Below are positions 1-64,000 of a stretch of DNA of 64,000 bases, in pieces. The notes beneath the pieces are model-generated. The model was not told the DNA's origin, did no database searches, and saw only the letters and a program-made list of their open reading frames with translations. The DNA comes from an uncultured Bifidobacteriaceae bacterium (lineage in GTDB: Bacteria > Bacteroidota > Bacteroidia > Chitinophagales > UBA10324), in assembly GCA_964424455.1 (NCBI GenBank), contig CAYRJA010000001.1, positions 2,887 through 66,886 on the forward strand. Reading direction: 5' to 3'. Numbering within the stretch: position 1 is the stretch's first letter; every line of letters begins with the position of its first letter. The position numbers were made by a program, and so were the translations under genes.

Positions 1-273
1 ATGGCGCAACTCGGAACAGTGAATAAAGTACTCGGCGCATTACTGAAGTCAGGAACTTACTTACTGTTGTTTAGTACGCTGCTTTGGATATTAAATCAGG
101 CGGGAGTTATTTCACCGGAAACTAAAGCACAATCCAAGTTATATAATTATGCATCCCCTGTTGCGCCCTTTGTAATGAGTGAATTGGGCGCATGGGTGCC
201 GACATTCAAAAATTTGTTGAGCGACATTCAGCATTACTATAATCGCTTTCGTCTTCCTGACATACTGAAATAA
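1..273 (+). CDS. C-terminal fragment of a small membrane protein (possibly CvpA-like); 5' end lies outside the window
   Basis: ORF is open at the window start. Hydrophobic segment LLLFSTLLWIL. Stop at 271-273. Confidence 0.5.
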   Translation: MAQLGTVNKVLGALLKSGTYLLLFSTLLWILNQAGVISPETKAQSKLYNYASPVAPFVMSELGAWVPTFKNLLSDIQHYYNRFRLPDILK

Positions 274-377
274 CAAATGGACAAGTATAGTTGAGATATT
301 AAACAATTAGAGTTTTGAAATTGCAAAACGGCGATATGAAATAAAAAAATTACATTAGCAACCTTATAGAGAAATTA

Positions 378-1145
378 ATGGATTATCAGGTAAAAGAAGA
401 AGGGAAGTACAAGTACATCGAAGAAGGTGAAGGAGAGGTCTTATTGTTGTTACACGGACTGTTCGGCGCACTCAGTAATTTCCGATGGATAGTAGATGAG
501 TTTAAAGGAAAATATAAAGTGGTTATCCCTCTTCTGCCGCTCTATGAGATGAATATTTTTGAAACTACTGTGAATGGATTGGTTCGCCATGTTCATGGTT
601 TTGTTGAAACAACAAAAATTTCTTCTGCAATTGTTATCGGCAATTCACTGGGAGGGCATATAGCACAGTTGTATTGCCTTGCACATCCGGAAAAAGTGAA
701 AGCAATGGTGCTTACCGGAAGCAGCGGATTGTTTGAAAATGCAATGGGTGGCACATTCCCAAAGCGAGGCAACTATGAATATATCAAAGAGAAAACAGAA
801 TATACTTTCTACGACCCGAAAGTTGCGACCAAAGAATTAGTAGATGAAGTTTTCGGCATTTGCAACGATCGCGGAAAGGCAATTCGGGTAATTTCTATGG
901 CAAAATCTGCTATAAGAGAAAATCTTGCAAACGACTTGCATAAAATAAAATGTCCGGTATGCTTAATTTGGGGGAAACAGGATAAAATCACTCCCCCGTT
1001 TGTAGCAGAAGAATTTCACAAGATGCTGTCTAATTCGGAAATCCATTGGATGGAACAATGCGGGCACGCACCGATGATGGAAAAGCCGGAAGAATTTAAT
1101 AAACTGTTACAGGGTTTTCTCTCTAAACTTCCGGTATCTGTATAA
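378..1145 (+). CDS. alpha/beta-fold hydrolase
   Basis: 255 aa. HG oxyanion motif LLLHGLFG, nucleophile elbow GNSLGG, C-terminal CGHAPMME histidine motif. Confidence 0.85.
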   Translation: MDYQVKEEGKYKYIEEGEGEVLLLLHGLFGALSNFRWIVDEFKGKYKVVIPLLPLYEMNIFETTVNGLVRHVHGFVETTKISSAIVIGNSLGGHIAQLYCLAHPEKVKAMVLTGSSGLFENAMGGTFPKRGNYEYIKEKTEYTFYDPKVATKELVDEVFGICNDRGKAIRVISMAKSAIRENLANDLHKIKCPVCLIWGKQDKITPPFVAEEFHKMLSNSEIHWMEQCGHAPMMEKPEEFNKLLQGFLSKLPVSV

Positions 1146-1153
1146 TCGCATTC

Positions 1154-1816
1154 ATGAAAGCTGCCGAATTAATTTCTCAATCAGTACCACAGATAAAATT
1201 AGGCGACACAGTCTTCAGTGTGTTACAGATGATGAACGAAACGCATCTGAGCCAGCTTCCACTGGTGGAAAATGGTAAGTTGCTGGGGTTGGTAAAAGAA
1301 GAAGAAATATTGAATCCGATTCATTCGGAAGAACTAATCAGGAATATGAAACTGGCATTGATTCGCCCCTTTATCCATGACTATGAACATATTTTTGAAG
1401 TAGTGAAAGTGGCGAGTGAATTGAAGATGAAAGTTATTCCTGTAATAGATAAAGATGAGAATTATATTGGCTGTATTACACTTGAAACCATGGTCAACTA
1501 TTTTGCACAACAGACGGATATTCTTGAAGCAGGTGGAATATTAGTTCTTGAAATGGAAGTGAAAGATTATTCACTTTCTGAAATAGCAAGATTAGTAGAA
1601 GCGGAAGAAGCAAAAATACTTTCTGCCTTTGCAGGCTCAATACCGGACAGCACCAGAATGGAACTTACATTGAAAGTAAATAAGCCCGATTTACAGGCAA
1701 TCATTTCTTCATTGCAGCGGCACAACTATATTATCAAAGACACTTATCAGGAGCCGGAATATTTTGAAGATCTGAAAAACCGCTTTGATCAGTTGATGAC
1801 TTACCTGAATGTGTGA
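1154..1816 (+). CDS. CBS-domain protein
   Basis: 220 aa. Tandem CBS-like segments (LSQLPLVENGKLLGLV, MKVIPVIDKDENYIGCIT). Starts 8 nt after the upstream gene. Confidence 0.7.
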   Translation: MKAAELISQSVPQIKLGDTVFSVLQMMNETHLSQLPLVENGKLLGLVKEEEILNPIHSEELIRNMKLALIRPFIHDYEHIFEVVKVASELKMKVIPVIDKDENYIGCITLETMVNYFAQQTDILEAGGILVLEMEVKDYSLSEIARLVEAEEAKILSAFAGSIPDSTRMELTLKVNKPDLQAIISSLQRHNYIIKDTYQEPEYFEDLKNRFDQLMTYLNV

Positions 1817-1865
1817 CACTCTTTTTTTTAGAGTTCAAAACTTTAAGAAAGTTTATTGAAAGACC

Positions 1866-3290: not shown

Positions 3291-3376
3291 TTCAAAATGT
3301 GTAGTTGTACAACATCTGATTTTTAAAAATTATAGAATTAATTTGCACGCAATTCTAATCCAATTCCAGACTCAAA

Positions 3377-3913
3377 ATGATTTTATCTGATAAAGCTATT
3401 CTCGAAGAAATAGAAAAAGGGAATATCCTGATTGAACCCTATCATCCCGATTGCTTGGGATCCAACAGCTATGATGTTCATCTGGGAAAATATCTTGCTA
3501 CTTACAACGATCCGGTGTTAGATGCCAAAAAGCATAATCAGATAACTGAGTTCACCATTCCTAAAGAAGGATTTGTGTTACAGCCGGGCACGCTGTATCT
3601 GGGTGTAACAGAAGAATATACTGAAACCCATGCACATGTCCCGTTTCTCGAAGGAAAATCATCTGTAGGCAGATTGGGTATTGACATTCATGCCACAGCA
3701 GGAAAAGGAGATGTCGGTTACTGTAACACATGGACACTGGAAATTTCCGTTTCACATCCGGTGCGTGTGTATGCAGGTATGCCCATTGGACAACTGATTT
3801 ACTTTACTGTTGAAGGCGAAGTAAAAAACTCTTATGACAAAAAGAAGAATGCCAAATACACCGGCAGAACCCTGAAGCCGGTTGAATCCATGATGTGGAA
3901 GAATAAGTTTTGA
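3377..3913 (+). CDS. dcd: dCTP deaminase
   Basis: 178 aa. N terminus MILSDKAILEEIEKGNILIEPY and GKSSVGRLGI are typical of the Dcd/dUTPase-fold family. Confidence 0.9.
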   Translation: MILSDKAILEEIEKGNILIEPYHPDCLGSNSYDVHLGKYLATYNDPVLDAKKHNQITEFTIPKEGFVLQPGTLYLGVTEEYTETHAHVPFLEGKSSVGRLGIDIHATAGKGDVGYCNTWTLEISVSHPVRVYAGMPIGQLIYFTVEGEVKNSYDKKKNAKYTGRTLKPVESMMWKNKF

Positions 3914-3950: not shown

Positions 3951-6377
3951 ATGAAGCGAATATTAGTTCTTATTCCCCTCTTTCTTCTTCATCTTGTTGC
4001 TGTTGCCCAATATACATGGCAGGGAAAAGTATTGGATTCCATTTCTGAGTCACCGCTGGCATTTGTTACCATCGTAATCAACAACAATATATATCAGGGT
4101 ACAAGAACAGATATTGACGGAAAATTTTCAGTTGTACTTCCCGAGAAAACAGGAACTATACTGTTAACCTATGTCGGATACAATGATAAAATTGTGCAGC
4201 TTCACGCTTCCGGGAAAATAAATTCAATTACTATTCTGCTTTCTGAAAAACAGTTTAATCTTAAAGGTGTTACAGTAGTTGCCGGTGAAAACCCCGCCAA
4301 CAGGATTATTAAAGAGGTGACGAAGAATGCAGATAAAAACAATCCTCAGAAACTTTCTTCCTATTCCTACACTTCTTACGATAAGTTTACTTTTTCAGGA
4401 GATGCAACCAATGAATACAAGCTCAAGAAAAAAGATTCCGCTGCCATTAAGGAGTTTGAATTTTTCAAGAAGTACAAAATGTTTATCATGGAAACAGTGG
4501 TGGACAAGAAGTACAAGTTTCCCGGACGAACCAAAGAAGCGGTACAGGCGATAAAGATTTCTGGCTTGCAGGAACCGTCGTTTACCTTGCTCATGTCGCA
4601 GATGCAGTCCACTGCTTTTTATGATGAGTTTATTTCTGTGATGCAAAAAGATTTTATGAATCCTGTAAGCAAGGGCAGTACCGATAAATATTTCTTCAAT
4701 GTTGAAGACACCACTTTTGCCGGCAGCGATACTGTATTTGTGGTTTCATATAAGCCGGCGAAAGGAAGAAAATTTGATGCGCTGAAAGGATTACTCTACA
4801 TCAATACAAACGGTTATGCCATTGAAGAAGTGATTGCCTCACCGGCAGATTCGATTGGAACACTTTTGTATTTTACTATTCAGCAACAGTATTCACAGGT
4901 TGACGGGCATTGGTTTCCGGTACAGTTAAACACCGATTTATATTACAATGATTTTTTATTTAGCGGATTGAAGATGACAATGAGCGGACGCAGTTACATC
5001 AGTAACATTAAAATTAATCCCGTCATCCCCAATTCAGTATTCGATGGTATTATGCAGGAAATTGATCCGCGGGCAGGCATACAGAAAGAGGATTACTGGG
5101 ATAAACATCGTAACGATACTCTTTCGCTTTCAGAACAACAAACCTATAAATTCATTGACAGTTTAGGGAAAAGATATATGCTTGATACAAAACTGAAAGC
5201 AATTGAGGCATTAATAAATGGCGAGTTTCCTTACAAGTTTATCAACTTCACTCTGTCGCGTTTCATAGCTTTAAACAAGTATGAAGATGTGCGGCTCGGA
5301 CTGGAAGCGAGAACGAACGATAGAATGTCGAAATATTTTTCGATAGGAGGGTTCTTTGGTTATGGCTTCAGCGACAAAGTGTGGAAATATGGTGGCAATC
5401 TGTCGCTATCGCTGTACCGGAAAAATAATGTGCGGTTAAAGTTTTCTTACTCGAAAGACTACAATGAAGCGGGAGCAGTAAAATTCTATAAAGAAGGATA
5501 TTGGGGTTCGGGAATGGAAACAAGAGATTATTTAATCAACAAATTTGATATGGTGGATGAGAAGAAAATTACATTTTCCGGGCGCACCATTAAAAATTTG
5601 CACTTTGCACTTTCGGGATTCGAGCGGATAAAGCAGGCAATGTATCCCTACTCATTTGTTACGACAATGAATAATGAAGTAGTTTTAAAAAACCGGTTTA
5701 ATTACTCAGGCGCTGAACTGGGGCTTCGTTACTGTTACAATGAAAAGGTAGTTCAGATTATGGATCAAAACTGGTTTATCAGTTCACGCTACCCGATTCT
5801 GTGGCTGAATGTATCTAAGGGATTTAACGACGCTCTCGATGGAGAATATGATTACCTGAAACTGGATTTTAAAATAAGCTATAATTTTCTGATTAAAGGA
5901 TTAGGTACAACTTACCTCCAGGCACAAACAGGAAATGTTTCATCACGACTTCCTCTTAATGAACTTTATACGGGCAGAGGAAACTATAGCATTTTCGGGG
6001 TTTACTCTTTCAACAGTTTTGAAACCATGCGTATGGATGAGTTTTTGTCGAACCGCTATGCATCCGTTTTCCTGCGGCAGGATTTCGGATCACTACTATT
6101 TAAGGCAAAAAAATTTCAACCGAAAGTTTTATTCGCTACCAATGCTGCCATCGGCTCACTGAATAACCCTGAACAGCATGCTGGCATTACAATAAAAACA
6201 TTGAATAAGGGATACATCGAATCAGGAATTATCATAGAAGATATTCTTACTAAAAAAATTATGGGAGTAGCCCGCTTTGGTTTGGGCTTTGGCGCATTTT
6301 ACCGGTATGGTCCCTATATGTTCCCTAACCCATGGGATAATGTAGCATTCAAGATAGACTGGACTGTAACAAATTAG
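3951..6377 (+). CDS. carboxypeptidase-regulatory-like domain plus DUF5686-type outer-membrane protein
   Basis: 808 aa. Signal peptide, N-terminal GKVLDSISESPLAFVTIV CarboxypepD_reg-like fold, long beta-rich C-terminal region as in Bacteroidota DUF5686 proteins. Confidence 0.6.
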   Translation: MKRILVLIPLFLLHLVAVAQYTWQGKVLDSISESPLAFVTIVINNNIYQGTRTDIDGKFSVVLPEKTGTILLTYVGYNDKIVQLHASGKINSITILLSEKQFNLKGVTVVAGENPANRIIKEVTKNADKNNPQKLSSYSYTSYDKFTFSGDATNEYKLKKKDSAAIKEFEFFKKYKMFIMETVVDKKYKFPGRTKEAVQAIKISGLQEPSFTLLMSQMQSTAFYDEFISVMQKDFMNPVSKGSTDKYFFNVEDTTFAGSDTVFVVSYKPAKGRKFDALKGLLYINTNGYAIEEVIASPADSIGTLLYFTIQQQYSQVDGHWFPVQLNTDLYYNDFLFSGLKMTMSGRSYISNIKINPVIPNSVFDGIMQEIDPRAGIQKEDYWDKHRNDTLSLSEQQTYKFIDSLGKRYMLDTKLKAIEALINGEFPYKFINFTLSRFIALNKYEDVRLGLEARTNDRMSKYFSIGGFFGYGFSDKVWKYGGNLSLSLYRKNNVRLKFSYSKDYNEAGAVKFYKEGYWGSGMETRDYLINKFDMVDEKKITFSGRTIKNLHFALSGFERIKQAMYPYSFVTTMNNEVVLKNRFNYSGAELGLRYCYNEKVVQIMDQNWFISSRYPILWLNVSKGFNDALDGEYDYLKLDFKISYNFLIKGLGTTYLQAQTGNVSSRLPLNELYTGRGNYSIFGVYSFNSFETMRMDEFLSNRYASVFLRQDFGSLLFKAKKFQPKVLFATNAAIGSLNNPEQHAGITIKTLNKGYIESGIIIEDILTKKIMGVARFGLGFGAFYRYGPYMFPNPWDNVAFKIDWTVTN

Positions 6378-8568: not shown

Positions 8569-9429
8569 ATGGAAGAGATTTTAAGAATAGCGATACAGAA
8601 ATCCGGTCGTCTGAGTGAGCAATCTCAGTCGCTGGTGAAAGAATGTGGAATTGAATTCAGTAATGGAGCAGGAAAGCTGACTGCCCACGCACAGAATTAT
8701 CCGGTTGAACTTCTTTTCCTTCGTGATGATGACATCCCCGGCTATGTTACAGACCATGTAGCAGATATTGGAATAGTAGGCGAAAATGTGTTACAGGAGA
8801 AGAACACAAAGGTAGATGTAAAAGAAAAATTAGGATTTGGTAACTGTCGCCTTTCTATTGCTGTGCCTAAGAGCTTTGAGTATAAATCCATAAAAGATTT
8901 AAAGAATAGAAAAATTGCTTCTTCCTATCCGAACATTCTCTCCCGCTTTCTGAAAAAAAATAAAATTGAAGCCACCATTCATGAAATCAGCGGCTCGGTA
9001 GAAATAGCGCCGGGAATCGGGTTGGCAGATGCAATTTGCGATTTAGTCAGTTCGGGCAGCACATTGCTTTCCAACGGACTGAAAGAAGCGGAAGTGGTGT
9101 TACAGTCGCAGGCAGTATTGATTGCAGGAAAAAACCTGTCTGCTGTAAAAAATAAAATACTCGATGATTTTCTTTTCAGGATTCGCTCGGTAAAAGCAGC
9201 TAAAAACAATAAGTATATACTGTTGAATGCTCCAAACGACTCGATTAATAAAATCATTAAGATTCTTCCCGGAATAAAAAGTCCTACTGTTTTACCTCTT
9301 GCTGAAAGCGGGTGGAGTTCTATTCACTCGGTGGTAAATGAAAATGAATTCTGGCATATCATTGACAAACTGAAAAATGCCGGCGCACAGGGAATATTGG
9401 TAGTGCCGATTGAAAAGATGATTGTGTAA
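8569..9429 (+). CDS. hisG: ATP phosphoribosyltransferase (long form)
   Basis: 286 aa. LRIAIQKSGRL N terminus, DLVSSGSTL PRPP motif. Followed by hisD and hisC. Confidence 0.93.
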   Translation: MEEILRIAIQKSGRLSEQSQSLVKECGIEFSNGAGKLTAHAQNYPVELLFLRDDDIPGYVTDHVADIGIVGENVLQEKNTKVDVKEKLGFGNCRLSIAVPKSFEYKSIKDLKNRKIASSYPNILSRFLKKNKIEATIHEISGSVEIAPGIGLADAICDLVSSGSTLLSNGLKEAEVVLQSQAVLIAGKNLSAVKNKILDDFLFRIRSVKAAKNNKYILLNAPNDSINKIIKILPGIKSPTVLPLAESGWSSIHSVVNENEFWHIIDKLKNAGAQGILVVPIEKMIV

Positions 9430-9489
9430 CACTTTAGTTTTTAGTGTAACAGTATTTACTAACAAAAGTTGACTGCGATATAAACAAAA

Positions 9490-10767
9490 ATGAAATTATA
9501 TAAAAATCCTATCAGAAAGGATTGGGAGAAACTGACAAGGCGACCTTACTACAACTTTCAGGAATTAGAGAAGAAAGTCAGTAAGATACTGTCGGCTGTA
9601 AAGAAAAAAGGAGATACGGCGCTGTTACAGTTTAACAGAGAGTTTGATAAAACTGAAATCAAGAAGCTGAAAGTTTCAGAGAGAGAAATCACATCAGCAG
9701 CCAATCAGTTGGATAAAGAACTAAAGCAGGCAATCCAAACTGCTTACAACAATATCTATAAATTTCATTCGGCACAAAAACAGGATGAATTGATTTTGGA
9801 AACAATGCCCGGAGTAAAGTGCAGGAGAAAATCAGTTCCGGTTCAGTCGGTGGGTTTATACATTCCCGGAGGAACAGCGCCGTTGTTTTCTACTTTGTTG
9901 ATGTTGGGTATTCCCGCAAAAATTGCAGGATGCGAAAATATAGTTGTATGCACACCGGCAAACAAAGAAGGTAAGATTCACCCTGCCATATTGTTTGTTG
10001 CAGAGTTGATTGGGATAAAAAATATTTTTAAAACGGGTGGCGCACAAGCTATTGCGGCTATGGCTTATGGGACAAAATCTATTTCGAAGTGTCACAAAAT
10101 TTTTGGACCGGGGAACCAGTTTGTTACAACAGCTAAAATGTTAGTGAATAAAGAAGGAGTGGCTATTGATATGCCTGCCGGACCATCGGAAGTGTTGGTG
10201 TTGGCGGATGGTTCAGCTAATCCTGAATTTGTAGCTGCAGATTTACTGTCACAGGCAGAGCATGGCATTGACAGTCAGGCAGTACTAGTTACAACGGACA
10301 TAAGTTTGGTTTCTAAAGTGGAGAAAGAAATAAAGATACAGGTAGAAGCATTGTCCAGAAGAGATATTGCGAAAAAATGCTTGAAGAAAAGTTTGTTTGT
10401 TTTTTTTAAAGACAGAAGTACAGCTATTGATTTTGTCAATGAATATGCCGCCGAACACTTAATTATTGCAACCGAAAAACCGGATGCGATTGCTTCGCAG
10501 ATAAAAAATGCCGGCTCTGTTTTTCTTGGACACTGGTCACCGGAATCAGTGGGAGATTATGCTTCGGGTACTAACCATACTTTGCCTACCGGAGGATATG
10601 CCAAAGCATACAGCGGTGTTTCTCTCGACAGTTTTGTGAAGAAAATTACCTTTCAGGAAATCACTGAAAAAGGTTTGAGGCATATCGGTGCAACTGTTGA
10701 AACCATGGCAGCGGCAGAAGGATTGGATGCACATAAAAATGCAGTAACCGTACGATTAAAAAAATAA
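9490..10767 (+). CDS. hisD: histidinol dehydrogenase
   Basis: 425 aa. Motifs SQAEHG and GDYASGTNHTLPT. Confidence 0.95.
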   Translation: MKLYKNPIRKDWEKLTRRPYYNFQELEKKVSKILSAVKKKGDTALLQFNREFDKTEIKKLKVSEREITSAANQLDKELKQAIQTAYNNIYKFHSAQKQDELILETMPGVKCRRKSVPVQSVGLYIPGGTAPLFSTLLMLGIPAKIAGCENIVVCTPANKEGKIHPAILFVAELIGIKNIFKTGGAQAIAAMAYGTKSISKCHKIFGPGNQFVTTAKMLVNKEGVAIDMPAGPSEVLVLADGSANPEFVAADLLSQAEHGIDSQAVLVTTDISLVSKVEKEIKIQVEALSRRDIAKKCLKKSLFVFFKDRSTAIDFVNEYAAEHLIIATEKPDAIASQIKNAGSVFLGHWSPESVGDYASGTNHTLPTGGYAKAYSGVSLDSFVKKITFQEITEKGLRHIGATVETMAAAEGLDAHKNAVTVRLKK

Positions 10768-37078: not shown

Positions 37079-37120
37079 ACCCAATAATCAATAATTAATT
37101 TAACACTAAACAAACAATCC

Positions 37121-39091: not shown

Positions 39092-39321
39092 TATTATCAT
39101 TCTGAACATAGTGAGGCACCTAAAAATTATTAGAAGATACTTCACTATATTCAGCATGACAGCATAAAGAAAATGACTACCTCAGAAATCATGTGAGAGC
39201 ATGATTGTCAATAAGAGTGATTAATGAAACGAATCTTATTTCATTTGGGTTGAAAGACTGATTCGTAATAATTGACAATAAAAATTTTTGGGGTGGTCTT
39301 TTCTTTTTAAATCCTGTTCTT

Positions 39322-40350: not shown

Positions 40351-41621
40351 TAAACACTTTCCAACAGCAGGCAAGGTATTTTTTCTTATTGATTCTTATT
40401 TCGTGCTGGAATTTTTTCTCTTCGGAGGCGAAACAGATTACGGTTTCAAATCATCAATCCATTAAGAAAGCTGTTACAGCAGCGGCATCAGGTGATACCA
40501 TATTCATTGCTCAGGGAACCTACCGGGAACATGGAATTGAAATAAATATTCCGCTTACCATTATTGGAGAAAAATTTCCGGTGATTGATGGAGAAGCAAA
40601 AGGACAGATTTTCACTATTCATGCAAATGATGTTACAATCAAAGGATTGCAGATTCAAAACACAGGATATTCTGCTATGAATGACCTTGCCGGAGTCAGA
40701 ACTCAGAATGTTTCCAATATAAATGTTATAGGAAATAAATTTCTGAACTGCTGCTATGCCATTTTTATTGCAGGAGGCAGCCGTTGCACAGTAGAAAATA
40801 ATTCCATTAAAGGAAACCCCATAGAACAGCAATTGGCAGGAAATGGAATTCACAGTTGGCAGAGCACACATTGTGAAATCCGCAACAATAACATTACCGG
40901 TCAGCGCGACGGAATTTATTTTGAATTTGTTTTCTTCTCGGTTATCGAAAACAACCGCAGCTATGACAATATGCGTTATGGGTTGCATTTTATGTTTAGT
41001 GATAATAACAGGTTTGAAAAAAATATTTTTGAAAGAAACGGAGCAGGAGTTGCTGTTATGTATAGCAAGTACATCACCATGCTCAATAATATTTACAGCC
41101 AGAATTGGGGAGGCAGCGCTTATGGATTATTATTGAAAGACATTAATGACAGCTATGTACTTTATAATCACTTTGAAAAGAATACGGCAGCAATTAATAT
41201 GGAGGGCTGTAACAGGAGTGTATTTCTTCATAATGATTTCATTCAGAATGGATGGGCAATGCGTGTTCAGGCAAATTGTGAGAATAATATAATCTCATTC
41301 AATAATTTTATAGGCAACACATTTGATGTGGCAACAAACGGCTCTCTTTCTTTGAATTACTATTCAAGAAATTATTGGGATAAATATGACGGATATGATT
41401 TGAATAGAGACGGTGTTGGTGATGTACCTTATCGCCCAGTCAGCGTGTTCAGCATGATAAGTGAAAATATACCCGAGAGCATGATTATGATGCAGAGTTT
41501 TTCAGTAATGCTTTTAGATAAAGTGGAAAGAGTGCTGCCCGGCATCATTCCCGAAGGATTGATTGATAACTTACCATTGATGAAAAAAAATAATAATGCT
41601 TATCCGGATTCAAAATCTTAA
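40338..41621 (+). CDS. nosD: NosD periplasmic beta-helix protein
   Basis: 427 aa. Signal peptide, repeated parallel beta-helix units (NxIxGN...), position between nosL and nosF. Overlaps nosL by 13 nt. Confidence 0.9.
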   Translation: MDKIVNTFQQQARYFFLLILISCWNFFSSEAKQITVSNHQSIKKAVTAAASGDTIFIAQGTYREHGIEINIPLTIIGEKFPVIDGEAKGQIFTIHANDVTIKGLQIQNTGYSAMNDLAGVRTQNVSNINVIGNKFLNCCYAIFIAGGSRCTVENNSIKGNPIEQQLAGNGIHSWQSTHCEIRNNNITGQRDGIYFEFVFFSVIENNRSYDNMRYGLHFMFSDNNRFEKNIFERNGAGVAVMYSKYITMLNNIYSQNWGGSAYGLLLKDINDSYVLYNHFEKNTAAINMEGCNRSVFLHNDFIQNGWAMRVQANCENNIISFNNFIGNTFDVATNGSLSLNYYSRNYWDKYDGYDLNRDGVGDVPYRPVSVFSMISENIPESMIMMQSFSVMLLDKVERVLPGIIPEGLIDNLPLMKKNNNAYPDSKS

Positions 41622-42309
41622 CAAAAGTTTTCGCAGACTGCAGGTATTGAAAGATGTTACAGTTTCTTTTGATGTAAACCAGTCTGTTGCGATAGTAGGA
41701 CCCAATGGCTCGGGTAAAACCACACTTATTAAGACTATACTGGGAATGGTAATCCCTGACAGTGGCGAGATTAAAGTGAATGAAAAAAAAATCTACCGTA
41801 ATTTTCATTACCGGCAGTCAATCGGTTATATGCCGCAGATAGGAAGGTATCCTGAGAATACAACAATTGGGCAAATCTTCCGGATGATAAAAGATATACG
41901 GCAGCACAACGGTTCACCGCTCGATGAAGAATTAATAGAGGCATATCAATTGCCTTCCCTGTTTAACAAACGGATGAGGACACTTTCGGGCGGAACAAGG
42001 CAGAAAGTAAGCGCTGCGCTCGCATTCCTTTTTAATCCTCCTATATTAATCCTGGATGAACCCACAGCAGGACTTGATCCGCTAAGCGCTGAAATTCTGA
42101 AAGAAAAAATTCTGAAGGAAAGAAGTCACAATAAACTTATACTGATTACATCGCATATAATGAGCGATCTGGACGAACTGAGTTCGCACATACTTTATAT
42201 GCTTGAGGGTAATCTGCAATTTTTTAAATCTGTTGAAGATTTAAGAAAAGAAACAGAAGAAGAGCGGTTAGGGAAGATAATGGCAAAATTAATGATGCAT
42301 AAATCCTGA
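41596..42309 (+). CDS. nosF: NosF ABC-transporter ATPase
   Basis: 237 aa. Walker A GPNGSGKTT, signature LSGGTRQK, Walker B LILDEPT. Overlaps nosD by 26 nt. Confidence 0.9.
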   Translation: MLIRIQNLNKSFRRLQVLKDVTVSFDVNQSVAIVGPNGSGKTTLIKTILGMVIPDSGEIKVNEKKIYRNFHYRQSIGYMPQIGRYPENTTIGQIFRMIKDIRQHNGSPLDEELIEAYQLPSLFNKRMRTLSGGTRQKVSAALAFLFNPPILILDEPTAGLDPLSAEILKEKILKERSHNKLILITSHIMSDLDELSSHILYMLEGNLQFFKSVEDLRKETEEERLGKIMAKLMMHKS

Positions 42310-42391
42310 TTTGCCATTAGGAAAAAGAAAATTAAACAGGATATTTCAGAGAGGGATTTTTTGAAATATTCGGGACAACAATAAAGATAGA

Positions 42392-43156
42392 ATGAAACTA
42401 CTGAAATACATATTTTTTGATTTAGTGCGCAGCCGGTTTGTACTGTTTTATTTCCTGCTGTTGCTGATTTTCACCGGAACATTCCTGCTGTTACAGGAGG
42501 ACGCTGCCAAAGTTCAGTTGAGTTTGCTGAATATCATTATTCTGATTGTTCCCCTGGTCAGTGTCATCTTTGCTACGATTCACTGGTACAACTCATCTGA
42601 GTTTATTGAAGTGCTGCTTGCTCAACCAGTCAGCAGAAAAAAAATTTTTATCAGCGAATTATTAGCGTTAAGTCTTGCGGTAGGAGGAGCTTTTGTGCTG
42701 GCAACAGGTTTTCCGCTGCTGTTGTTTTATCCTGACATTGTTTCAGTCCTTCTGATTGTTGCAGGATTCTTTCTTACTGTCATATTTATTGCATTGGCTT
42801 TCTGGGCGGCGGTTTTTACCAGAGATAAAGCAAAAGGAATCGGATTGAGTTTGGTACTATGGCTTTACTTCTCTCTTATTTATGACGGGTTGGTGCTGAT
42901 GCTGATGTTCAACCTGAGCGATTATCCGATTAGTAAGGCGGTGGTAGCGCTCCTTTCGCTCAACCCCGTTGATATGGCAAGAGTAATGGTGCTGATGAAA
43001 ATGAATATGAATGCTATGCTCGGGTACAGCGGAGCAGTGTTTACTGAGTTTTTAGGCAGCACTGTCGGATTGGTTTATTCAGGCATATTGCTTTTCATCT
43101 GGGCTTTAGTGCCTTTCTGGTGGGCGCTAAAAAGATTTTCACATAAGGATTTGTAA
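42392..43156 (+). CDS. nosY: NosY ABC-2-type permease
   Basis: 254 aa with six TM helices, located after nosF. Confidence 0.85.
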   Translation: MKLLKYIFFDLVRSRFVLFYFLLLLIFTGTFLLLQEDAAKVQLSLLNIIILIVPLVSVIFATIHWYNSSEFIEVLLAQPVSRKKIFISELLALSLAVGGAFVLATGFPLLLFYPDIVSVLLIVAGFFLTVIFIALAFWAAVFTRDKAKGIGLSLVLWLYFSLIYDGLVLMLMFNLSDYPISKAVVALLSLNPVDMARVMVLMKMNMNAMLGYSGAVFTEFLGSTVGLVYSGILLFIWALVPFWWALKRFSHKDL

Positions 43157-43159
43157 CAG

Positions 43160-44413
43160 ATGGATAACAAGCAAACTTTCGTAAAGAGATTTTATGTTGC
43201 CTTGTTCAATCTGTTGCTGGCTGCTTCAGTTGGTACCATCCTGCGTTATGTGTTTATTCACCCCCTGAAAATAGTAGATGATTTTCGTTATGTACTTCAT
43301 GCACATTCACATGTTGCAATGATGGGATGGGGGTTTATGGCACTGTTCGGTTGCCTGTTGTATTCTTTCTCACCTGAAACTTCAGGAAAGAAAATTTATC
43401 ATATTCTTTTCTGGACGTGTGAGGTAATTATTCTAATCTTACTCGTTAATTTCTGGGTGAATGGCTATGATGTTACAAGCATTGTTTTATCGACAGGTTA
43501 TATTGTTATCACCTTTATTTTCTCCATCCGCCTTTTTCGTGATATAAGGAGGAAAGAAAATGTAAAGAATAAACTAAGTATTCACCTGTTGTGTATTTCA
43601 CTTTTTTTCCTGTGCCTTTCTGCAATTGGTATTATGGGTATGGCTCCAACAATGATGTTCATGCAAGGTTCGCTGAAAATACTTTTTTATTATTTAACGG
43701 TACAGTTCTACATGCATTTTCAATACAACGGATGGTTCATATTTGCATGCCTTGCTTTATTTTTCACAATGAAGAAGAATGATGCGGCTGTTATAGAACA
43801 TAAGAACTCTTTAATGGTTGTTTACCTGTTTGCATTCAGTACTGTTGTAGCATTCTGTTTCGATGTATTCTGGGCGTTTCCACACTATCCTGTATTTCTG
43901 AATCTGTCAGTTGTAGTTGCGGTCATCCAGTTGATTATGACTGTAACATTATTTGTAATTAATAAAGATTTAGTGAAAGCTATTTGGGGAGGATTAAGAT
44001 ATGGTGTGAAAATACTTTTCCTGATTTCCTTTATTGCTCTTATGTTAAAGGAGCTGATACAAATAATAATCATTTATCCCGGAATGGCTCAAACTGTTTT
44101 TGTACTTCGCAGTTATGTGATAGCTTACCTGCACCTGATATTTCTGGGTATTACAACTGTTTTTCTTTTGGGTTATGCCTGGCAGAATGGAGCTTTAGTT
44201 ATTCAATCAACATTCACAAAATTCGCTATCATATTAATTATCAGTTGCATCTTCTTAATTGAGTTAGCGCTTGCTATCATGGGTACTTTATCGTGGGCAG
44301 GAAAGTATAACCCACCATATATGTATGTATTCATTTTTGCTTTCTCCCTTTCTATTGTCATAGGTATTATTATACTTCTTCTGCTGAACAGAAAAAAAAG
44401 AATAAACGAATAA
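43160..44413 (+). CDS. uncharacterised polytopic membrane protein, last gene of the nos operon
   Basis: 417 aa with about 12 TM helices. His cluster LHAHSHVAMMGWGF in an early helix. The ATG lies 3 nt after the nosY stop. Confidence 0.6.
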   Translation: MDNKQTFVKRFYVALFNLLLAASVGTILRYVFIHPLKIVDDFRYVLHAHSHVAMMGWGFMALFGCLLYSFSPETSGKKIYHILFWTCEVIILILLVNFWVNGYDVTSIVLSTGYIVITFIFSIRLFRDIRRKENVKNKLSIHLLCISLFFLCLSAIGIMGMAPTMMFMQGSLKILFYYLTVQFYMHFQYNGWFIFACLALFFTMKKNDAAVIEHKNSLMVVYLFAFSTVVAFCFDVFWAFPHYPVFLNLSVVVAVIQLIMTVTLFVINKDLVKAIWGGLRYGVKILFLISFIALMLKELIQIIIIYPGMAQTVFVLRSYVIAYLHLIFLGITTVFLLGYAWQNGALVIQSTFTKFAIILIISCIFLIELALAIMGTLSWAGKYNPPYMYVFIFAFSLSIVIGIIILLLLNRKKRINE

Positions 44414-45264: not shown

Positions 45265-46158
45265 TTAAGATGATTTGCGGCTACGCTTTGTTTTAGCCGG
45301 TGATTTTTTAGTGCGTTGAGTATAATCCTTTTCATGCAGCACCAGCACAGGTACAGAAGTGTGGTAAATCATTTGTTCTGTTACACTCCCTTTCATGAAC
45401 AGTCGGTTAAACAAACTCTTTTTACGAGGGAGCATTACCAATACACTTGCTTTGTTCTTAGTCAGAAATGTGCTGATGCCACTGGCGATTTCAATATCAG
45501 CAACAACAGCTCCTGTTATTTTTTTATAAGGAAATTGCTTTTTGATTTTCTTTATTGCATCATTAAATTTTACATCATTATCTGCAAACACCTTATTGTT
45601 GACATTGAGAAAGATAATTTCTGATTTAGCTTTTTTTGCCACAGGAATCAACTCTTTAATATGTTCAATATTATCTTTTAGTAAATCGGTGGCATATACT
45701 ATTGTATTCAGCCCGCTGTAATTTGCATTGTGCGGAACAGCCAGCGCCATACACGGAGCATTGCGCATAATTTTCCATGCATTAGTGCCGAATAAAACTG
45801 TTTCTAAGAAACCTTTTCCTTTGGCTCCTGTTACAATTAAATCTACTTTCTTTTCTTTTGCCAGATCCCTGATTTGCGAAGCAACTACACCGGCTTTCAG
45901 TACCGGAATAATTTTAACCCCTACTGCATATTTTTTAATTGAAGTATAATAGGTTTTCAGATCCTTTTCTGCGGCATCATAAAGTGCAGCATAGTTTAAC
46001 CGCATATTGGTTAATGCTCCATCATAACCGAGATCAGGCACATCAAATATATGTGTGAGAAGAATGGTTGATTTAAAGTCTTTGGCAAGCGCTATCGCAT
46101 ACCGGCAGGCATTGTCTGCCGCTTTCGAAAAATCGGTGGTGACAAGAATAGTTTTCAT
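45265..46158 (-). CDS. tandem universal stress protein (UspA) domains
   Basis: 297 aa. Two USP units (MKTILVTTDFS...LIVTGAKGKG and NTIVYATDL...VPVLVL). Confidence 0.85.
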   Translation of the reverse strand: MKTILVTTDFSKAADNACRYAIALAKDFKSTILLTHIFDVPDLGYDGALTNMRLNYAALYDAAEKDLKTYYTSIKKYAVGVKIIPVLKAGVVASQIRDLAKEKKVDLIVTGAKGKGFLETVLFGTNAWKIMRNAPCMALAVPHNANYSGLNTIVYATDLLKDNIEHIKELIPVAKKAKSEIIFLNVNNKVFADNDVKFNDAIKKIKKQFPYKKITGAVVADIEIASGISTFLTKNKASVLVMLPRKKSLFNRLFMKGSVTEQMIYHTSVPVLVLHEKDYTQRTKKSPAKTKRSRKSS

Positions 46159-46294
46159 AGTGTAGTGTTACAGTTGAGTGAATGATTAACTTTTATTCTC
46201 GTTTATTAATTGCTTTTATAAGTATCAAAATTAACAATCACAAGATAGGTAGGAGTTATTAATACAACAAGAGGTTTATGCTCATATCATACGT

Positions 46295-48508
46295 TCAGGT
46301 AAGCAAACCCAACAAAGACAGCAGTGTCCGTGGCGATTTCAGGTTGTAACGAGCAGAGGAAATACCCGCACCGACCTTTAAAGTCCACGCTTCTGAATTT
46401 TTCATTACACTGAACATATCTTCATCTGTTCGATCATCACCAACACAAAAGATAAAATCATACTTCTTCTCGGACAGGATTCTTGTAACAGCCTTGCCTT
46501 TATCTGCTTCCAGACTCCGGAGTTCCACCACTTTATTGCCATTAATCACCTGAACATTCACGTTTTTAAAAACATCGCTTAGTTCGCTGAATAATTCCTT
46601 TGCACGCATATCTCCCAGATTATTATCAGCTTTCCGGTAATGCCATCCGATTGAAAATTCCTTTTCTTCTACAAATGCCCCGGCACAACGTTGTTCATAA
46701 GAGTGCATAATCTCTAACGCTTTCGTTTTCCATCCAATAAAAGAACTGATGGTATTCACCCATTTTTCTCCCTTCCGCTTAATACGGGCACCGTGTTCTG
46801 CAATCAGATGGATAGGCAACGCTCCAAACCATTGCTCTAATGTTTTTATGCTTCTACCACTCACGATGAATACATCATTGCGGGAAGATGCAGTCAGCCG
46901 TTTCAATACCTGTATTAACTCTGCAGTAGGAGCAGCTTTCTCCGGGTTATCTGCAAATTCTACAAGTGTTCCATCATAGTCCAGTAGCAGCAGCCGGTGT
47001 TTTGCCCCGATATAAGCAGCTATTAATTTCATCTTCTTCCAAATGCTAAGACGCTGAACCGAAAATTGGTTTTGCTGTCTGTGTATGTTCCGCAACTGTG
47101 ACAGAAAATCTTCCGCCCATCGTTTTACATCATAATTTTTTATCCGTTGCTGCATATTGTTTAGTCTGAACTCCTGCTCCTGTTCAGGCATACTCAACGC
47201 TTGACGGATTTTCAATACCATATCTTCTTTATCTATCGGATTTACTATCAATGATTCGCCTAATTCGCTGGCTGCACCGGCCATTTCACTCAGTATCAGT
47301 ACACCATGTTTGTCTTTGCGGCTTGCTACAAATTCTTTTGCCACCAGATTCATCCCATCTCGTATCGGCGTAATCAGCGCAAGATCGCAAGCAGTATAAA
47401 AAGCGGATAGCTCTGTAAATTCAAGATGGGCATAACGATAAATCAGCGGTTGCCATGTCAGTGTTCCGTAAATACTGTTAATGTTTCCAACCGCTTCATT
47501 TATCATTCTTTTTCGTTCGGAATATTTATCAATAGATATGCGGGAAGGAACAATAATGAGAATGAACACTACTTTTCCTCTGTATTCGGGATATTCGTCC
47601 ATTAATGTTTTGTATGCAGAAAGCCGGTAGCTGATGCCTTTTGTATAATCAAGCCGGTCAACAGAAAAGATGATTTTACTACCTGTAAATTTCTGTAACA
47701 GTTCTTTCCTTTGTTTTTCAATTTCAGGATAATCATAAGCTGAATTGAATTTTTCAAAATCAATACTGATAGGGAAAATATCAATTTTTACCAACCTGTT
47801 TTCAAAACGAATAATACGCTGATCATCCTCATACCCCATAATCCGCTGTACAGATTTCAGAAAGTGCATAGCAAAATCATTTGTATGAAACCCGACGATA
47901 TCTGCGCCCAGCATCCCTTCCAGCAAAGCGTGTCCCCATTTGTGAGGAATCAGCCGGAAGATTTCATAAGAAGGAAACGGGATATGCAGAAAAAAGCCGA
48001 TGGGTGTTCCCGGATTTTTCTCACGAAGCATTTTTGGGAGCAGCAGTAAATGATAGTCATGAATCCACACTACATCGTCCGGACCCGCGTGTTTGGATAG
48101 CACTTCTGCAAAACTTCTATTGGCAGCAGTATAGTGCTTTAAATTATCCGAGCTGTATTCAGCAAAGGAAGTAAAATAGTGAAACAGAGGCCATATAACA
48201 GTGTTGGAAAATCCATCGTAATAACCGCGATATACTTTCTTATCAATAAAAACGGGAAGATAGGAAAACGATTCCTGCTTCAATCGTTTGTGAAAAATTT
48301 TCCAATCTTCTTCCGTACACCCCGGACAGCCGCACCAGATTACTTCAGAAAACATTTCTGCCTTTATTGTTTCATCATGTTGTAAGAAACTGTTCATAGC
48401 GGAAACCAATCCTCCTGAAGAGGATTTTATTTCAGGGCCGTTTGCTCCTCTTATAAAATTTACGGGCAACCTGTTAGAAACGATGAAGAGTTTTCCTTTT
48501 TTACTCAT
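46295..48508 (-). CDS. bifunctional trehalose-6-phosphate synthase / phosphatase (OtsA-OtsB fusion)
   Basis: 737 aa. N-terminal GT20 domain ([27 protein letters not shown]) and C-terminal HAD phosphatase ([19 protein letters not shown]). Confidence 0.92.
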
Positions 48509-56042: not shown

Positions 56043-58274
56043 ATGTCAGTGTCGGTAAAAGAATCTGTAGTTACTGTAGAAATGGCTGCTCAGCTTGGTC
56101 TTTCAACAGAGGAGTTTGAAAAGGTAAAAACCGTTTTAGGTCGTACGCCTAATTTCACGGAGCTAAGTATTTATTCGGTGATGTGGAGCGAGCACTGCTC
56201 CTATAAAAATTCTATCAAGTGGTTGAAAACACTGCCGCGTGAAGGAAAACATTTGCTGGCAAAAGCGGGAGAAGAAAATGCTGGATTAGTGGATATTGGC
56301 GATGGACTGGGTTGTGCTTTTAAAATAGAGTCGCACAATCATCCTTCTGCCATAGAGCCGTATCAGGGTGCAGCTACCGGAGTAGGAGGTATTCACCGCG
56401 ATATTTTTACAATGGGTGCGCGACCGGTTGCGGCGCTTAACTCTCTCCGGTTTGGGAATCTGGAAGAAGAAAAAACAAAACATCTGCTGCGCGGCGTAGT
56501 GAAAGGAATCGGTGATTATGGAAATGCATTTGGTGTTCCTACAGTGGGAGGTGAAGTTTTCTTTGATGAGTGTTACAATACCAATCCGTTGGTCAATGCC
56601 ATGTCTGCAGGAATTGTTGAAAAAGGAAAAACAGTTTCCGCTACTTCTTACGGGAAGGGAAACTTAGTTTATATCGTCGGCTCGGCAACAGGGAAAGACG
56701 GAATTCACGGAGCCACTTTTGCATCAGCAGATATTACAGAAGACAGCGCTGAAAAATTACCGAGTGTACAGGTTGGCGATCCCTTTCAGGAAAAATTATT
56801 ATTGGAGGCATCGCTGGAAGTAATTGAAACGGGCGCATTAATCGGAATGCAGGACATGGGCGCTGCCGGTATCACTTGCTCTACTTCAGAAATGAGTGCA
56901 AAAGGAGAATCCGGAATGATCATTCATCTGGATAAAGTGCCAACGCGCCAGCAGAATATGAAACCATTTGAAATCCTGCTGAGCGAATCACAGGAACGTA
57001 TGTTGCTTGTGGTGAAAAAGGGAAGAGAGAAAGAGGTGGAAGAAGTTTTTAAAAAATGGGATTTGAATTGTTCGCTGATAGGAGAAGTAACAGACGGTGA
57101 CCGCCTTCAATATTATATGTATGATGAGTTAGTGGCAGATGTGTCTGCTGAATCGCTTGTGCTGGGCGGCGGCGCTCCGGTGTATGAGCGCGAGTACAAA
57201 GAGCCTATCTACTTTGCGACAACCAAAGAATTTGACATCAACAATATTCCTGAACCGTCTGATATTCGTACTGTTGCTGAACAATTGATTCAACTGCCTA
57301 ACATCGCTTCCAAGAAGTGGGTATATGAGCAATATGATTCCACTGTGCAGATAAATAATTCATCTACCAACAAACCTTCTGATGCTGCGGTTATCCGGAT
57401 TAAAAAATCGAATAAAGCAATAATGCTTACGGTAGATTGCAATGCGCGGTATGTTCATGCCGACCCTTTCACCGGTGCAGCCATTGCAGTGAGTGAAGCA
57501 GCAAGAAATATTGTTTGTACAGGTGGCGAACCCTGTGCAGTAACCAACTGCCTGAATTTTGGAAATCCTTACAATCCCGAAGTGTACTGGCAGTTTGTCA
57601 ATGCAATTAAGGGAATGGGGGAAGCGTGCAAGAAATTAGATACGCCTATTACAGGAGGTAATGTAAGTTTCTACAATCAGTCGTCAGATGATGGTCCTGT
57701 ATTCCCAACTCCGACTATAGGAATGTTGGGGTTAATGGATAATATGAAACATCAGACTACACTTGATTTTAAAAATGCCGGTGACCTGATTTATCTGATA
57801 GGTGAATCGAAAGAGGACATCAGTTCATCAGAATACCTCGCAAATATTTGCGGACAAAAGATTTCACCTGCTCCTTACTTCAACTTAGATGAAGAAATCG
57901 TGTTACAGGATACGGTAAAGCAACTGATTCGCGCAGGATTGATTCAATCAGCACATGATTGCAGTGACGGAGGATTGTTTGTAACACTGCTTGAATCCGC
58001 AATGGCAGGTAACAACGGGTTTGACATCAGCACAGATGAAAGCTTTCGTAAAGATGCTTTCCTGTTTGGTGAAGCACAGAGCAGAGTAGTAGTAACTGTA
58101 ACACCTGAGCAGCAGGATACATTCATTGACTTACTCAGTCAGTTTGAAATTGATTTCTCTCTGCTTGGTGAAGTGCTTGATGATGCAATTTATATTGATG
58201 ACGAGGACTTAGGAGATATTAATTACTGGAAAGGACTGTATGATAACGCCATAGGAAAGGAAATGCAAGCCTAA
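56043..58274 (+). CDS. purL: phosphoribosylformylglycinamidine synthase subunit PurL
   Basis: 743 aa. Motifs WSEHCSYK and [21 protein letters not shown], with duplicated AIRS domains. Confidence 0.95.
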
Positions 58275-58358: not shown

Positions 58359-58425
58359 TATAATTAATGAAACTGAAGTTCTGTTAAATGTATTACTGTA
58401 ACAGAACAGGAATTTTAGTTCTGAC

Positions 58426-60209: not shown

Positions 60210-60375
60210 CATTCGGAACTCCTTTACAATTTAATTCTCTAAATATTTTTATTGCGTTATCAGAATCAATGTTCTACTTTTATTTTAAGATAATTGAACA
60301 GCAGGTTATACTCAATAGCTTTTTCAGAACCTTGTACTGTTACAATTAATGTATTGATAACATTTTACTGTCCGG

Positions 60376-62958: not shown

Positions 62959-63116
62959 CAGTTTGGGGTTTGGCGAAGTGGAGGTATTAGAAGCATAACA
63001 CTTTCACCTTACATAAAGGTTTGATAGGAGTACCCAAGTTCATTTCATTACTTCACCCGCCATTCCTCTATATCAGAGTTGGGTACAATAATATTCCATT
63101 TTAATTTTTGTGATTA

Positions 63117-64000
63117 TTAATCATCGTCTTTATCCTTCTTCTTATCTTCTTTTTTGTTCGGTTTAATATACTCCTTAATATTTCCGATATCCTTACTATT
63201 AATTTCTCTTTTGTTTTTATCATATTCTTTTATGTCGTGTTCATCACCACTTCGATGGCAGGAGGCGCAGTCTGAAAAGTTATAAATGTTATGTTTCTGA
63301 TGTTCTTTGGTGATTTTATTTTCAGAGTGTTCATGACAACCGTAGCATGTAAATACATTGTAATTATTATTTGTGTGGCAGGTTATGCACTTCGCATTGT
63401 GGTTTTCATCGAGAACAAAATAAGGAGAATGGTCGAAGGTGGATGGCGACCATTTATTAGTAGTATGGCATTTGTCGCAATTGTTTTGTAATGATTGATG
63501 AAAAGAATCGTCCGGCTTCTGATGGCATGAAGAGCAGTTGTTTTTGTTTACGCCTGTTATCAGGTCGTGGTTGAATGAACCTGTAAATTTCCAACTGTTC
63601 GTGTTGTGGCAACTATTGCACGAAACGGAAAGTTGATTGTGCAATTTATCTATCGGCTTGCCATGGCAACTGTTACAGTTTGTTTTCATTTCGGTAGTCA
63701 GCAGGTCGTGGTCGAAACTACTTATTGAAATCTGTGGGTGTAATCCTTTATGGTCGGTGTGACAACTTGTGCATTCCTGATTTTTCAGTTTGCTGTGAAA
63801 TAAGAGCATTCTCTTTTCTTTTGAGAGATTGTTTTTAGAAGAATCATTCATCCCAATTTCGTCCAGCTTATGACAACTGATGCATCTGCTTGTCTCAATT
63901 CCCCAAAATGGTTTATGACAGGCAGTGCAATCGTTTTTAATTTTCTGATGCCCTTCAATAAGTTCACCGGGATTCAGCATCAGATGAGGAAATAGCGCTG
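63117..64000 (-). CDS. multihaem (at least 10 CxxCH) c-type cytochrome; N terminus probably outside the window
   Basis: Ten CxxCH motifs (CTACH, CISCH, CTSCH, CNSCH x2, CSSCH, CDKCH, CITCH, CYGCH, CASCH). The reading frame stays open upstream of the ATG at 63980 to the window edge. Acidic/lysine-rich C-terminal tail. Confidence 0.8.
   Translation of the reverse strand, partial: ALFPHLMLNPGELIEGHQKIKNDCTACHKPFWGIETSRCISCHKLDEIGMNDSSKNNLSKEKRMLLFHSKLKNQECTSCHTDHKGLHPQISISSFDHDLLTTEMKTNCNSCHGKPIDKLHNQLSVSCNSCHNTNSWKFTGSFNHDLITGVNKNNCSSCHQKPDDSFHQSLQNNCDKCHTTNKWSPSTFDHSPYFVLDENHNAKCITCHTNNNYNVFTCYGCHEHSENKITKEHQKHNIYNFSDCASCHRSGDEHDIKEYDKNKREINSKDIGNIKEYIKPNKKEDKKKDKDDD

Follow-up and report, generated by a model that had tools for sequence, protein, structure and literature searches.

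To our knowledge, only two proteobacterial families are firmly established as recognising their own DNA by its sequence during natural transformation, the Pasteurellaceae with their uptake signal sequence (USS) and the Neisseriaceae with their DNA uptake sequence (DUS). The function of another abundant short word, the cyanobacterial highly iterated palindrome HIP1, has been an open question for 30 years. HIP1 (GCGATCGC) is 8 bp long, is 15- to 300-fold over-represented, lies in and between open reading frames (ORFs) and is conserved between genomes (PMC5861425); it was recently reported to raise the efficiency of natural transformation (bioRxiv 10.1101/2024.09.10.611283). Haemophilus influenzae carries 1,471 USS and Neisseria meningitidis 1,892 DUS, only 34.5-65% of DUS/USS copies are located in ORFs, and some of the sites were created by amino-acid replacement at variable positions (PMC2817400). 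Graded uptake specificities of this kind show a sharp core with a weak halo of variants (PMC1939737, PMC3458573). Natural competence also occurs in Bacteroidota, where Riemerella columbina favours its own DNA, and a k-mer survey of competent Riemerella returned A-rich, low-complexity top words at about 3-fold over expectation and no discrete word (PMC7965970). The competence machinery of this phylum has no pilus and comprises ComEC, DprA and ComF together with Bacteroidota-specific envelope proteins (PMC8459023). Here we report on a short word, S-TGTTACA-G (S being G or C), which occurs about once per kb in a 64,000-nucleotide stretch (the window) of contig CAYRJA010000001.1, from an uncultured member of the Chitinophagales (Bacteroidota). 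The exact word was not found in the searchable literature and neither was any description of an uptake sequence or iterated word in Bacteroidota, in line with the first-pass annotation of the window, made from the sequence alone, which knew of no such element in this phylum.

Over both strands of the window the octamer TGTTACAG has 74 matches (40 plus, 34 minus), which corresponds to 1.16 per kb, and the heptamer TGTTACA/TGTAACA has 107 (56 plus and 51 minus). The GC content is 38.6% and the zero-order expectations are 13.0 heptamers and 2.5 octamers. The motif word is the top-ranking 7-, 8-, 9- and 10-mer of the window and stands above every A/T-rich word. These counts bear out the by-eye estimates of the first-pass annotation, which had proposed about 106 heptamers (55 plus, 51 minus) and about 74 octamers, exactly the number counted, against 12 and 2-3 expected for a GC content guessed at 40%. 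The window is our whole sample of this genome, hereafter genome A, and the term genome-wide is an extrapolation from the even density over the sequenced pieces.

Alignment of the 107 heptamers defined the unit. The base at -1 is C in 43, G in 43, A in 12 and T in 9 sites (S in 86/107, 80%), the base at +7 is G in 74, A in 21, C in 11 and T in a single site, and T is found at +8 in 52. The preference for G or C at -1 in about 80% of the copies and the frequent T after the G had both been described in the annotation. Information is confined to -1..+8, with all other positions at background, and the unit is therefore 5'-S-TGTTACA-G-(T)-3', which is no part of a longer repeat. The core TGTWACA is palindromic about its central W, and 27 of the 74 octamers are the full palindrome CTGTWACAG; about 30 are predicted from independent flanks, so the palindromic form is not in excess. 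As had been noted, CTGTTACAG (27 copies) and GTGTTACAG (30 copies) are about equally common. Single-mismatch variants of the octamer are mostly near background, and two of these neighbours, TGTTATAG and TGTTGCAG, occur 2 and 5 times with 2.2 and 2.5 expected. The enriched variants are chiefly those with a change at outer position 0, 1 or 7 (A at position 0, 6 versus 1.4 expected; A at position 1, 10 versus 2.2; at +7, A 21 versus 3.6 and C 11 versus 1.6), while the inner TTACA is intolerant of mismatch. TGTTACAT is almost excluded from the window (1 versus 3.0 expected). Since T follows the heptamer in 1/107 sites here and in 1/48 sites of a sister species described below, for a background of about 30%, TGTTACAT is avoided outright, beyond mere non-enrichment. 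Finally, GTWAC occurs 182 times, which leaves about 75 copies once the 107 motif copies are removed, versus 83 expected, and it is thus not enriched outside the word.

The excess withstands models that preserve the composition and the coding content of the DNA. Dinucleotide-preserving shuffles of the window (n = 100) contained 1.66 octamers on average (standard deviation 1.31, maximum 6), and a third-order Markov model of the whole window predicts 5.7. Coding DNA, delimited by the longest non-overlapping ORFs rather than by gene-finder calls, makes up 90.6% of the window and contains 67 octamers. Synonymous-codon shuffles, which preserve each protein sequence plus codon usage, gave 5.6 +/- 2.3 octamers within these ORFs (maximum 13), and codon-order shuffles within genes gave an expectation of 2.2. 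Markov models of orders 5-6 predict 39-70 octamers and the maximal order predicts 69.7, but this agreement is circular, since nearly every occurrence of the 6- and 7-mers within the word stems from a motif copy, and we rejected it as an explanation of the count.

Within ORFs the octamer is spread evenly over the three frames that coding readily permits, with 20 of the 67 coding octamers in the frame xTG-TTA-CAG (Val/Leu-Leu-Gln, for example at 1221..1228 on the plus strand), 21 in the frame xxT-GTT-ACA-G (x-Val-Thr-x, for example at 4268..4275, plus strand) and 22 in the antisense frame xCT-GTA-ACA (for example Thr-Val-Thr at 58096..58103, minus strand, in purL). The TAA-containing frame is empty and the two frames with a Cys codon are rare (1 and 3 copies). 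The non-coding octamers, 7/74 (9.5%), are in proportion to the non-coding share of the window (9.4%), and S at -1 and G at +7 are present in each frame class as well as in the intergenic copies. Two intergenic octamers, both already given as examples in the annotation, are GTGTTACAGT at 46166..46173 (plus), between the ORF at 45265-46158 (minus) and otsAB at 46295-48508 (minus), and the site at 58396..58403 (minus) between the convergent purL and metK; a third example, 9445-9452, is TGTAACAG, a heptamer with C at -1 and no strict octamer. The word also shapes the choice of codons. Val-Thr dipeptides are written GTT-ACA or GTA-ACA in 71/98 cases versus about 26 expected (GTT-ACA 36 and GTA-ACA 35, about 13 expected for each), and Leu-Gln dipeptides are written TTA-CAG in 26/76 cases versus 9.1 expected. 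The word is thus real and acts at the DNA level. The first-pass annotation, whose three frame examples indeed lie in frame with the ORFs at 1154-1816 and 3377-3913, had considered a peptide or codon-pair cause unlikely, and the three frames, the intergenic copies and the 12-fold excess over synonymous shuffles agree with that view. It had also named a low observed-to-expected ratio, a single reading frame and a single dispersed repeat family as grounds for abandoning the element; what we found was a ratio of 12-40, three frames and no repeat family.

The word shows no polarity. The strand split of the octamers (40:34) fits 50:50 (p=0.56), the spacing is Poisson-like (coefficient of variation 0.94), and the largest gap, 4,034 bp, is as expected of random placement. 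Neither even or periodic spacing nor an orientation switch was seen along the 64 kb. A plot of orientation against GC skew had been proposed in the annotation; within the window GC skew is positive across most of the sequence while the word splits 40:34, and a 75% skew is rejected (P=7e-5).

Related genomes were sought through the PurL protein. Scans of genome and metagenome collections gave closest matches of 81% and 78% identity, and the best-named relatives were Chitinophagales and Chitinophagaceae metagenome-assembled genomes (MAGs) with 72-76% identity. The word is not enriched in any of the 160 PurL loci from these scans, where it reaches at most 0.25 per kb versus 1.16 in the window; the next group out, L001 (PurL 81%), has 2 octamers in 22 kb. 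MAG CAMDDP01, also at 81% PurL identity, belongs to this motif-less sister group. Clustered at 90% identity, the window PurL grouped with three other proteins, encoded on contigs from independent Logan/JGI (Joint Genome Institute) assemblies. These contigs constitute a sister species group, B, with PurL proteins 94-95% identical to that of the window in amino-acid sequence. A colinear species B contig of 25.5 kb was found through the cluster members of two other window proteins, which brings the species B data to about 39 kb in total. The nucleotide identity of A and B is about 84% over 32 kb aligned and about 87% within purL; window segment 23525..48800 is colinear with the 25.5-kb contig (L163+L164, Logan SRR34578571; 84.4% identity) and segment 55960..62961 with contig L161 (83.1%). 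Species B carries the word, with 24 octamers and 36 heptamers in the 25.5 kb (0.94 octamers per kb) and 9 octamers in the 13.9 kb of L161 (0.65 per kb). Its logo matches that of the window (S at -1 in 44/48, G at +7 in 33/48, T at +7 in 1/48), and the same sites recur in contigs that were assembled separately, from five further sequencing runs and a JGI metagenome. Species B is represented in Logan runs SRR34578571, SRR34578580, SRR35206414/6, SRR11577118/9 and SRR16642463 and in JGI 3300009873. Being present in A and B and not enriched in L001, the word marks a roughly genus-level clade and is specific to one lineage. The comparison with related genomes that the annotation had called for has thus returned a sister species with the word at 0.65-0.94 per kb and next relatives without it.

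Comparison of A and B shows active maintenance of the word. Of the window octamers, 27/36 (75%) have an identical counterpart at the orthologous position of B, versus 28% for all octamers (binomial p=9e-9), and 27/31 B octamers are matched exactly in the window. Identity at third-codon positions is 93.6% within the octamers (94 positions), versus 67.5% outside them and 64.1% over the 12 nt to each side (Fisher p ~2-4e-9), and non-coding motif bases are 93.5% identical versus 76% for other non-coding bases. As identity is high inside the word and low in its flanks, the constraint is as sharply bounded as the logo. Sites not common to A and B are 1-5 mismatches apart. The intergenic octamer between purL and metK is kept in species B (window 58397 / L161 8848) in spite of differing flanks with an indel. 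The purL octamer at 57901..57908 (plus; IVLQD) is the same in all sister-species contigs, in which the flanking third positions differ, and the one at 58096..58103 is also kept. When purL is compared with the motif-less outgroups, some sites turn out to have been built by replacements at variable positions (GVQ -> VLQ, VA -> VT): at 57901 the outgroups encode GVQ, AIQ or HLQ, so amino-acid changes created the site, and at 58096 outgroup L001 has GTA-GCT (Val-Ala). Other purL sites are located on conserved peptides such as TPVTG.

The complete set of strict octamers contains all the individual octamer positions listed by the first-pass annotation. Plus-strand copies (TGTTACAG) start at 1105, 1221, 2177, 3576, 4268, 7152, 7710, 8745, 8789, 9098, 9623, 14234, 14485, 14802, 16410, 16941, 18346, 18998, 19568, 19619, 23729, 24897, 26265, 27269, 29665, 31067, 32106, 32486, 33144, 40472, 41655, 42489, 46166, 48641, 51389, 54201, 57901, 58537, 61811 and 63671. 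Minus-strand copies, read as CTGTAACA on the plus strand, start at 2812, 3721, 6364, 6849, 10894, 14556, 16664, 17650, 17766, 17877, 19486, 20065, 20713, 22275, 23968, 25517, 25983, 27861, 28083, 28582, 31913, 34051, 35589, 39623, 39941, 41207, 43941, 44556, 47693, 52930, 58096, 58396, 58920 and 60548.

The reading that we tentatively favour, at a probability somewhat short of even, is that S-TGTTACA-G serves as a lineage-specific 'self' tag in double-stranded DNA (dsDNA) for natural transformation, of the DUS/USS kind. A component of the lineage's natural-transformation pathway would bind the word in dsDNA, either during uptake at the cell surface or afterwards, when the DNA is processed or recombined, and word-carrying fragments of relatives would then be imported and recombined more often. 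Word-gaining alleles would spread and word-losing alleles would be replaced, a molecular drive that selection may reinforce, until the word had reached a density of about one per kb as far as coding permits, mainly on Val-Thr (GTT/GTA-ACA) and Leu-Gln (TTA-CAG). Excess, DNA-level nature, strand symmetry, random spacing, clade restriction and conservation are properties of the sequences themselves, and transformation is the process that we infer to maintain the word. Several observations weigh against a transformation tag. The clade with the word is narrow, at about genus level, compared with the family-wide DUS and USS. In contrast to DUS/USS, there is no intergenic excess (9.5% of copies in 9.4% non-coding DNA), and close inverted pairs, which would be terminator-like, are absent from the window site list. 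The ratio of observed to expected dipeptides is 1.44 for Val-Thr and 1.40 for Thr-Val; Val-Thr is therefore not more inflated than its reverse and the roughly two-fold peptide inflation known for USS is not evident. No recognisable DNA uptake, modification or restriction gene was found in the 64-kb window. Lastly, a structural or methylation-linked function of the HIP1 kind predicts the conservation of sites equally well.

This last alternative survives best among the rivals, and we consider it rather unlikely. It holds that the word is under selection for a chromosome function (nucleoid or domain organisation, or the site of an abundant protein) and/or for an orphan methyltransferase, any link to transformation being secondary. 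Over-representation, presence within and between ORFs and conservation across genomes are properties of HIP1 that we also found for the word, whose copies are, like those of HIP1 and unlike those of DUS, proportional between coding and non-coding DNA. The palindromic TGTWACA core, with 27/74 copies as CTGTWACAG, would moreover be a fitting target for a protein that binds as a dimer or for a type II-like methylase. The full word is asymmetric, however, with C equal to G at -1 and G far above A, A above C and T excluded at +7; the palindromic form does not rise above the independent-flank prediction (27 versus about 30) and GTWAC outside the word is not enriched (about 75 versus 83 expected). 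The spacing of the word is Poisson-like within 64 kb, a scale too short for the 10-90 kb periodicity of HIP1, and no methylase gene was found in the window or in the approximately 39 kb of sister-species contigs.

It is improbable, in our judgement, that the word acts after entry of the DNA, as a Chi-like 'self' mark that would attenuate a helicase-nuclease or a defence nuclease and so shield the DNA of the chromosome and of conspecifics. In favour of this, words of the Chi type are short, over-represented and particular to a lineage, conservation across species suits any functional DNA signal, and work on HIP1 in Synechococcus suggests that a hyper-abundant word can make recombination more efficient, 'in a manner reminiscent of Chi' (bioRxiv 10.1101/2024.09.10.611283). 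The known Chi and KOPS (FtsK orienting polar sequence) words are, however, polar and co-oriented with replication, whereas the word splits 40:34 without a switch and a 75% skew is rejected (P=7e-5). Known Chi sites also remain far below a 30- to 40-fold excess.

Slightly less probable again is that the word has no function and results neutrally from a mutation or repair process with a bias for this sequence, for instance a repair of the very-short-patch type that restores the 8-9-mer. Word-restoring repair would enrich the word and mimic cross-species conservation, and the enrichment is indeed strictly local (9 bp). We know of no repair system with an asymmetric specificity of 8-9 bp, however, and the single-mismatch neighbours are not depleted as a sink-source model predicts, TGTTATAG and TGTTGCAG being near or above expectation. 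Some sites, in addition, were built by several substitutions that include amino-acid changes, and the conservation of HIP1 between genomes has been argued to favour selection over biased repair (PMC5861425). An ordinary cause (a dispersed repeat or miniature inverted-repeat transposable element (MITE), a bias in codon pairs or peptides, or an artefact of assembly), for which only the raw count and the circular maximal-order Markov value of 69.7 speak, is effectively refuted by the lack of flank conservation, the three frames and intergenic copies, the 12-fold excess over synonymous shuffles and the agreement of independent assemblies.

Specific candidates of these kinds were considered one by one and ruled out: a codon, codon-pair or peptide cause by the frames, the intergenic copies, the 12-fold excess and the similar inflation of Val-Thr and Thr-Val; an RNA-level motif by the lack of sense bias beyond frame availability (about 20-22 copies per usable frame); a dispersed repeat, MITE, repetitive extragenic palindrome (REP) or bacterial interspersed mosaic element (BIME) by information that is about zero outside -1..+8; and a polar word of the Chi/KOPS type by the 40:34 split and the lack of an orientation switch.

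The window is ordinary Bacteroidota chromosomal DNA. It encodes proteins with type IX secretion system (T9SS) sorting domains, TonB-dependent/HmuY receptors, hisG, hisD, hisC, pyruvate kinase, ruvB and lpxK, together with a clade II nosZ cluster, otsAB, purL, metK, mprF and three tRNAs. The nos cluster (36611-44413) looks complete and is of the clade II (Sec-dependent) nitrous-oxide reductase type, with nosZ at 37121-39091 and genes for a cytochrome c, a nosD-like beta-helix protein, an ABC-2 membrane protein and an ABC ATPase. Species B has the cluster too, conserved and in colinear arrangement, and the density of the word in it is normal (7 octamers in 7.8 kb). In the same region one B strain, otherwise 99.5% identical, carries an IS1595-family transposase (L165:6434-7423) where the L163+L164 contig continues with DUF2141 and the nos genes, and this 1-kb ORF has zero word copies. 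Another segment of species B, about 4 kb long (L161:2093-6024; an aminotransferase, a haloacid dehalogenase (HAD) hydrolase and a T9SS-secreted protein), lacks a homologue in the window and is free of octamers, of which about 4 are expected at roughly one per kb; it may be recently acquired DNA, on numbers too small to judge. We also considered the ORF at 3951-6377 (plus), which encodes an 808-aa protein with an N-terminal CarboxypepD_reg-like domain (CarbopepD_reg_2) and DUF5686, as a possible counterpart of RA0C_RS04915, an outer-membrane protein of Riemerella anatipestifer that is essential for natural transformation, is annotated as carboxypeptidase-regulatory-like (pfam13620) and is encoded beside a DUF5689 gene. 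The ORF has no DUF5689 neighbour, and we do not put it forward as a competence gene.

A systematic look at the 160 fetched loci gave one more convincing example of such a word, in the cultured Fibrella forsythiae HMF5405 (L023:1-22241, NZ_JAFMYW010000001.1:49576-71816). There ACGTACC has 26 copies in 22 kb (1.2 per kb) on both strands (11+/15-), with the logo W-ACGTACC-T-R and unconserved flanks. AACGTACCT occurs 9 times versus 0.13 expected, all six frames are occupied, and 19 copies of ACGTACC lie in coding sequences versus 3.8 under synonymous shuffling. With this second case, lineage-specific iterated words may recur in Bacteroidota. Other repeated sequences came up in the same loci. In L004:1-22193, from an uncultured Sphingobacteriaceae MAG (CAXULQ010000001.1), TTTTnnnnGRTAAAAGAAGCA(T) has 16 copies in 22 kb on both strands and AAAGAAGC has 27; the reverse complement begins with ATGCTTCTTTTA and opens no long ORF, and this motif may be promoter-like or another intergenic signal. 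Two loci have a tandem array just upstream of purL: a Saprospiraceae MAG (CBDFIO010000001.1; L024:~9272-9800) with at least 40 repeats of the 14-bp unit AATTAAGATTGAAT, and a Melioribacteraceae MAG (L055:9051-9800) with about 8 repeats of a unit of about 106 bp with AAATCAGT triplets. Moderately over-represented dispersed words are AGGGGTTG and AACCCCTT in metagenome contig Ga0194119_10000002 (L101; 8-9 copies each in 22 kb) and CGTTATCA in L055 (11 copies).

It is possible, though we regard it with some doubt, that S-TGTTACA-G would represent the first uptake-type self tag in Bacteroidota, read by a non-pilus machinery, and one case of recurrent lineage-specific words of which ACGTACC would be the second. 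A sharply defined word in Bacteroidota, as a third independent case, would demonstrate the repeated origin of such tags, in a phylum with a poorly understood pilus-free competence machinery and a reported, unexplained preference for own DNA. As the PurL proteins of the word-bearing clade and its word-less sister group are only about 19% apart, few differences in gene content are expected between the two, and the gene responsible for reading or maintaining the word should be among them; if the transformation reading is true, a comparison of their gene sets could identify the receptor directly. Fibrella forsythiae, being cultured and having an analogous word, offers an experimental entry point. 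Such words mark species identity in metagenomes, where they could aid binning and the detection of recently acquired DNA, and they could guide the design of transforming DNA for genetically intractable Bacteroidota.

In its anatomy the word fits the small group of hyper-abundant words by which a lineage's own DNA can be told. Set beside the described systems, it shares most with USS (AAGTGCGGT / ACAAGCGGT) and DUS (AT-GCCGTCTGAA and dialects), which likewise have 8-10 informative bases, are asymmetric and occur about once per kb. It resembles them further in the equal use of both strands, in the many in-gene copies in frames with tolerable peptides, in the cost in amino acids, in the weak halo of one-off variants and in its clade-restricted sharing (PMC2817400, PMC1939737, PMC3630211). 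It differs in being found in another phylum, as another word and in a narrower clade, without intergenic enrichment or inverted-pair terminators, and whereas the USS/DUS receptor is ComP or a type IV minor pilin, the machinery of competent Bacteroidota has no pilus (PMC8459023). With HIP1 it has in common the proportional occurrence within and between ORFs, the conservation and the fact that it is no peptide, RNA or regulatory motif (PMC5861425). HIP1, however, is perfectly palindromic, includes target sites for two orphan methylases, is phylum-wide and is periodic at 10-90 kb, whereas the word is asymmetric in its flanks, has no known methylase and is restricted to about one genus. The likeness to DUS, USS and HIP1 proposed by the first-pass annotation accordingly stands for density, strand balance, in-gene frames and absence of repeat context, and fails for the terminator inverted pairs and for the palindromy of HIP1. 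Chi and KOPS are also short, lineage-specific, over-represented and read on dsDNA, by translocating enzymes, but they are strongly strand-skewed with replication and far less over-represented than the word, which splits 40:34 without polarity. The own-DNA preference of Riemerella columbina (PMC7965970) concerns the same phylum and likewise discriminates self; there the words are A-rich and about 3-fold enriched, while here a discrete 9-mer, known from sequence, is 12- to 40-fold enriched. As S-TGTTACA-G departs both from DUS/USS and from HIP1, we assign it to neither family.

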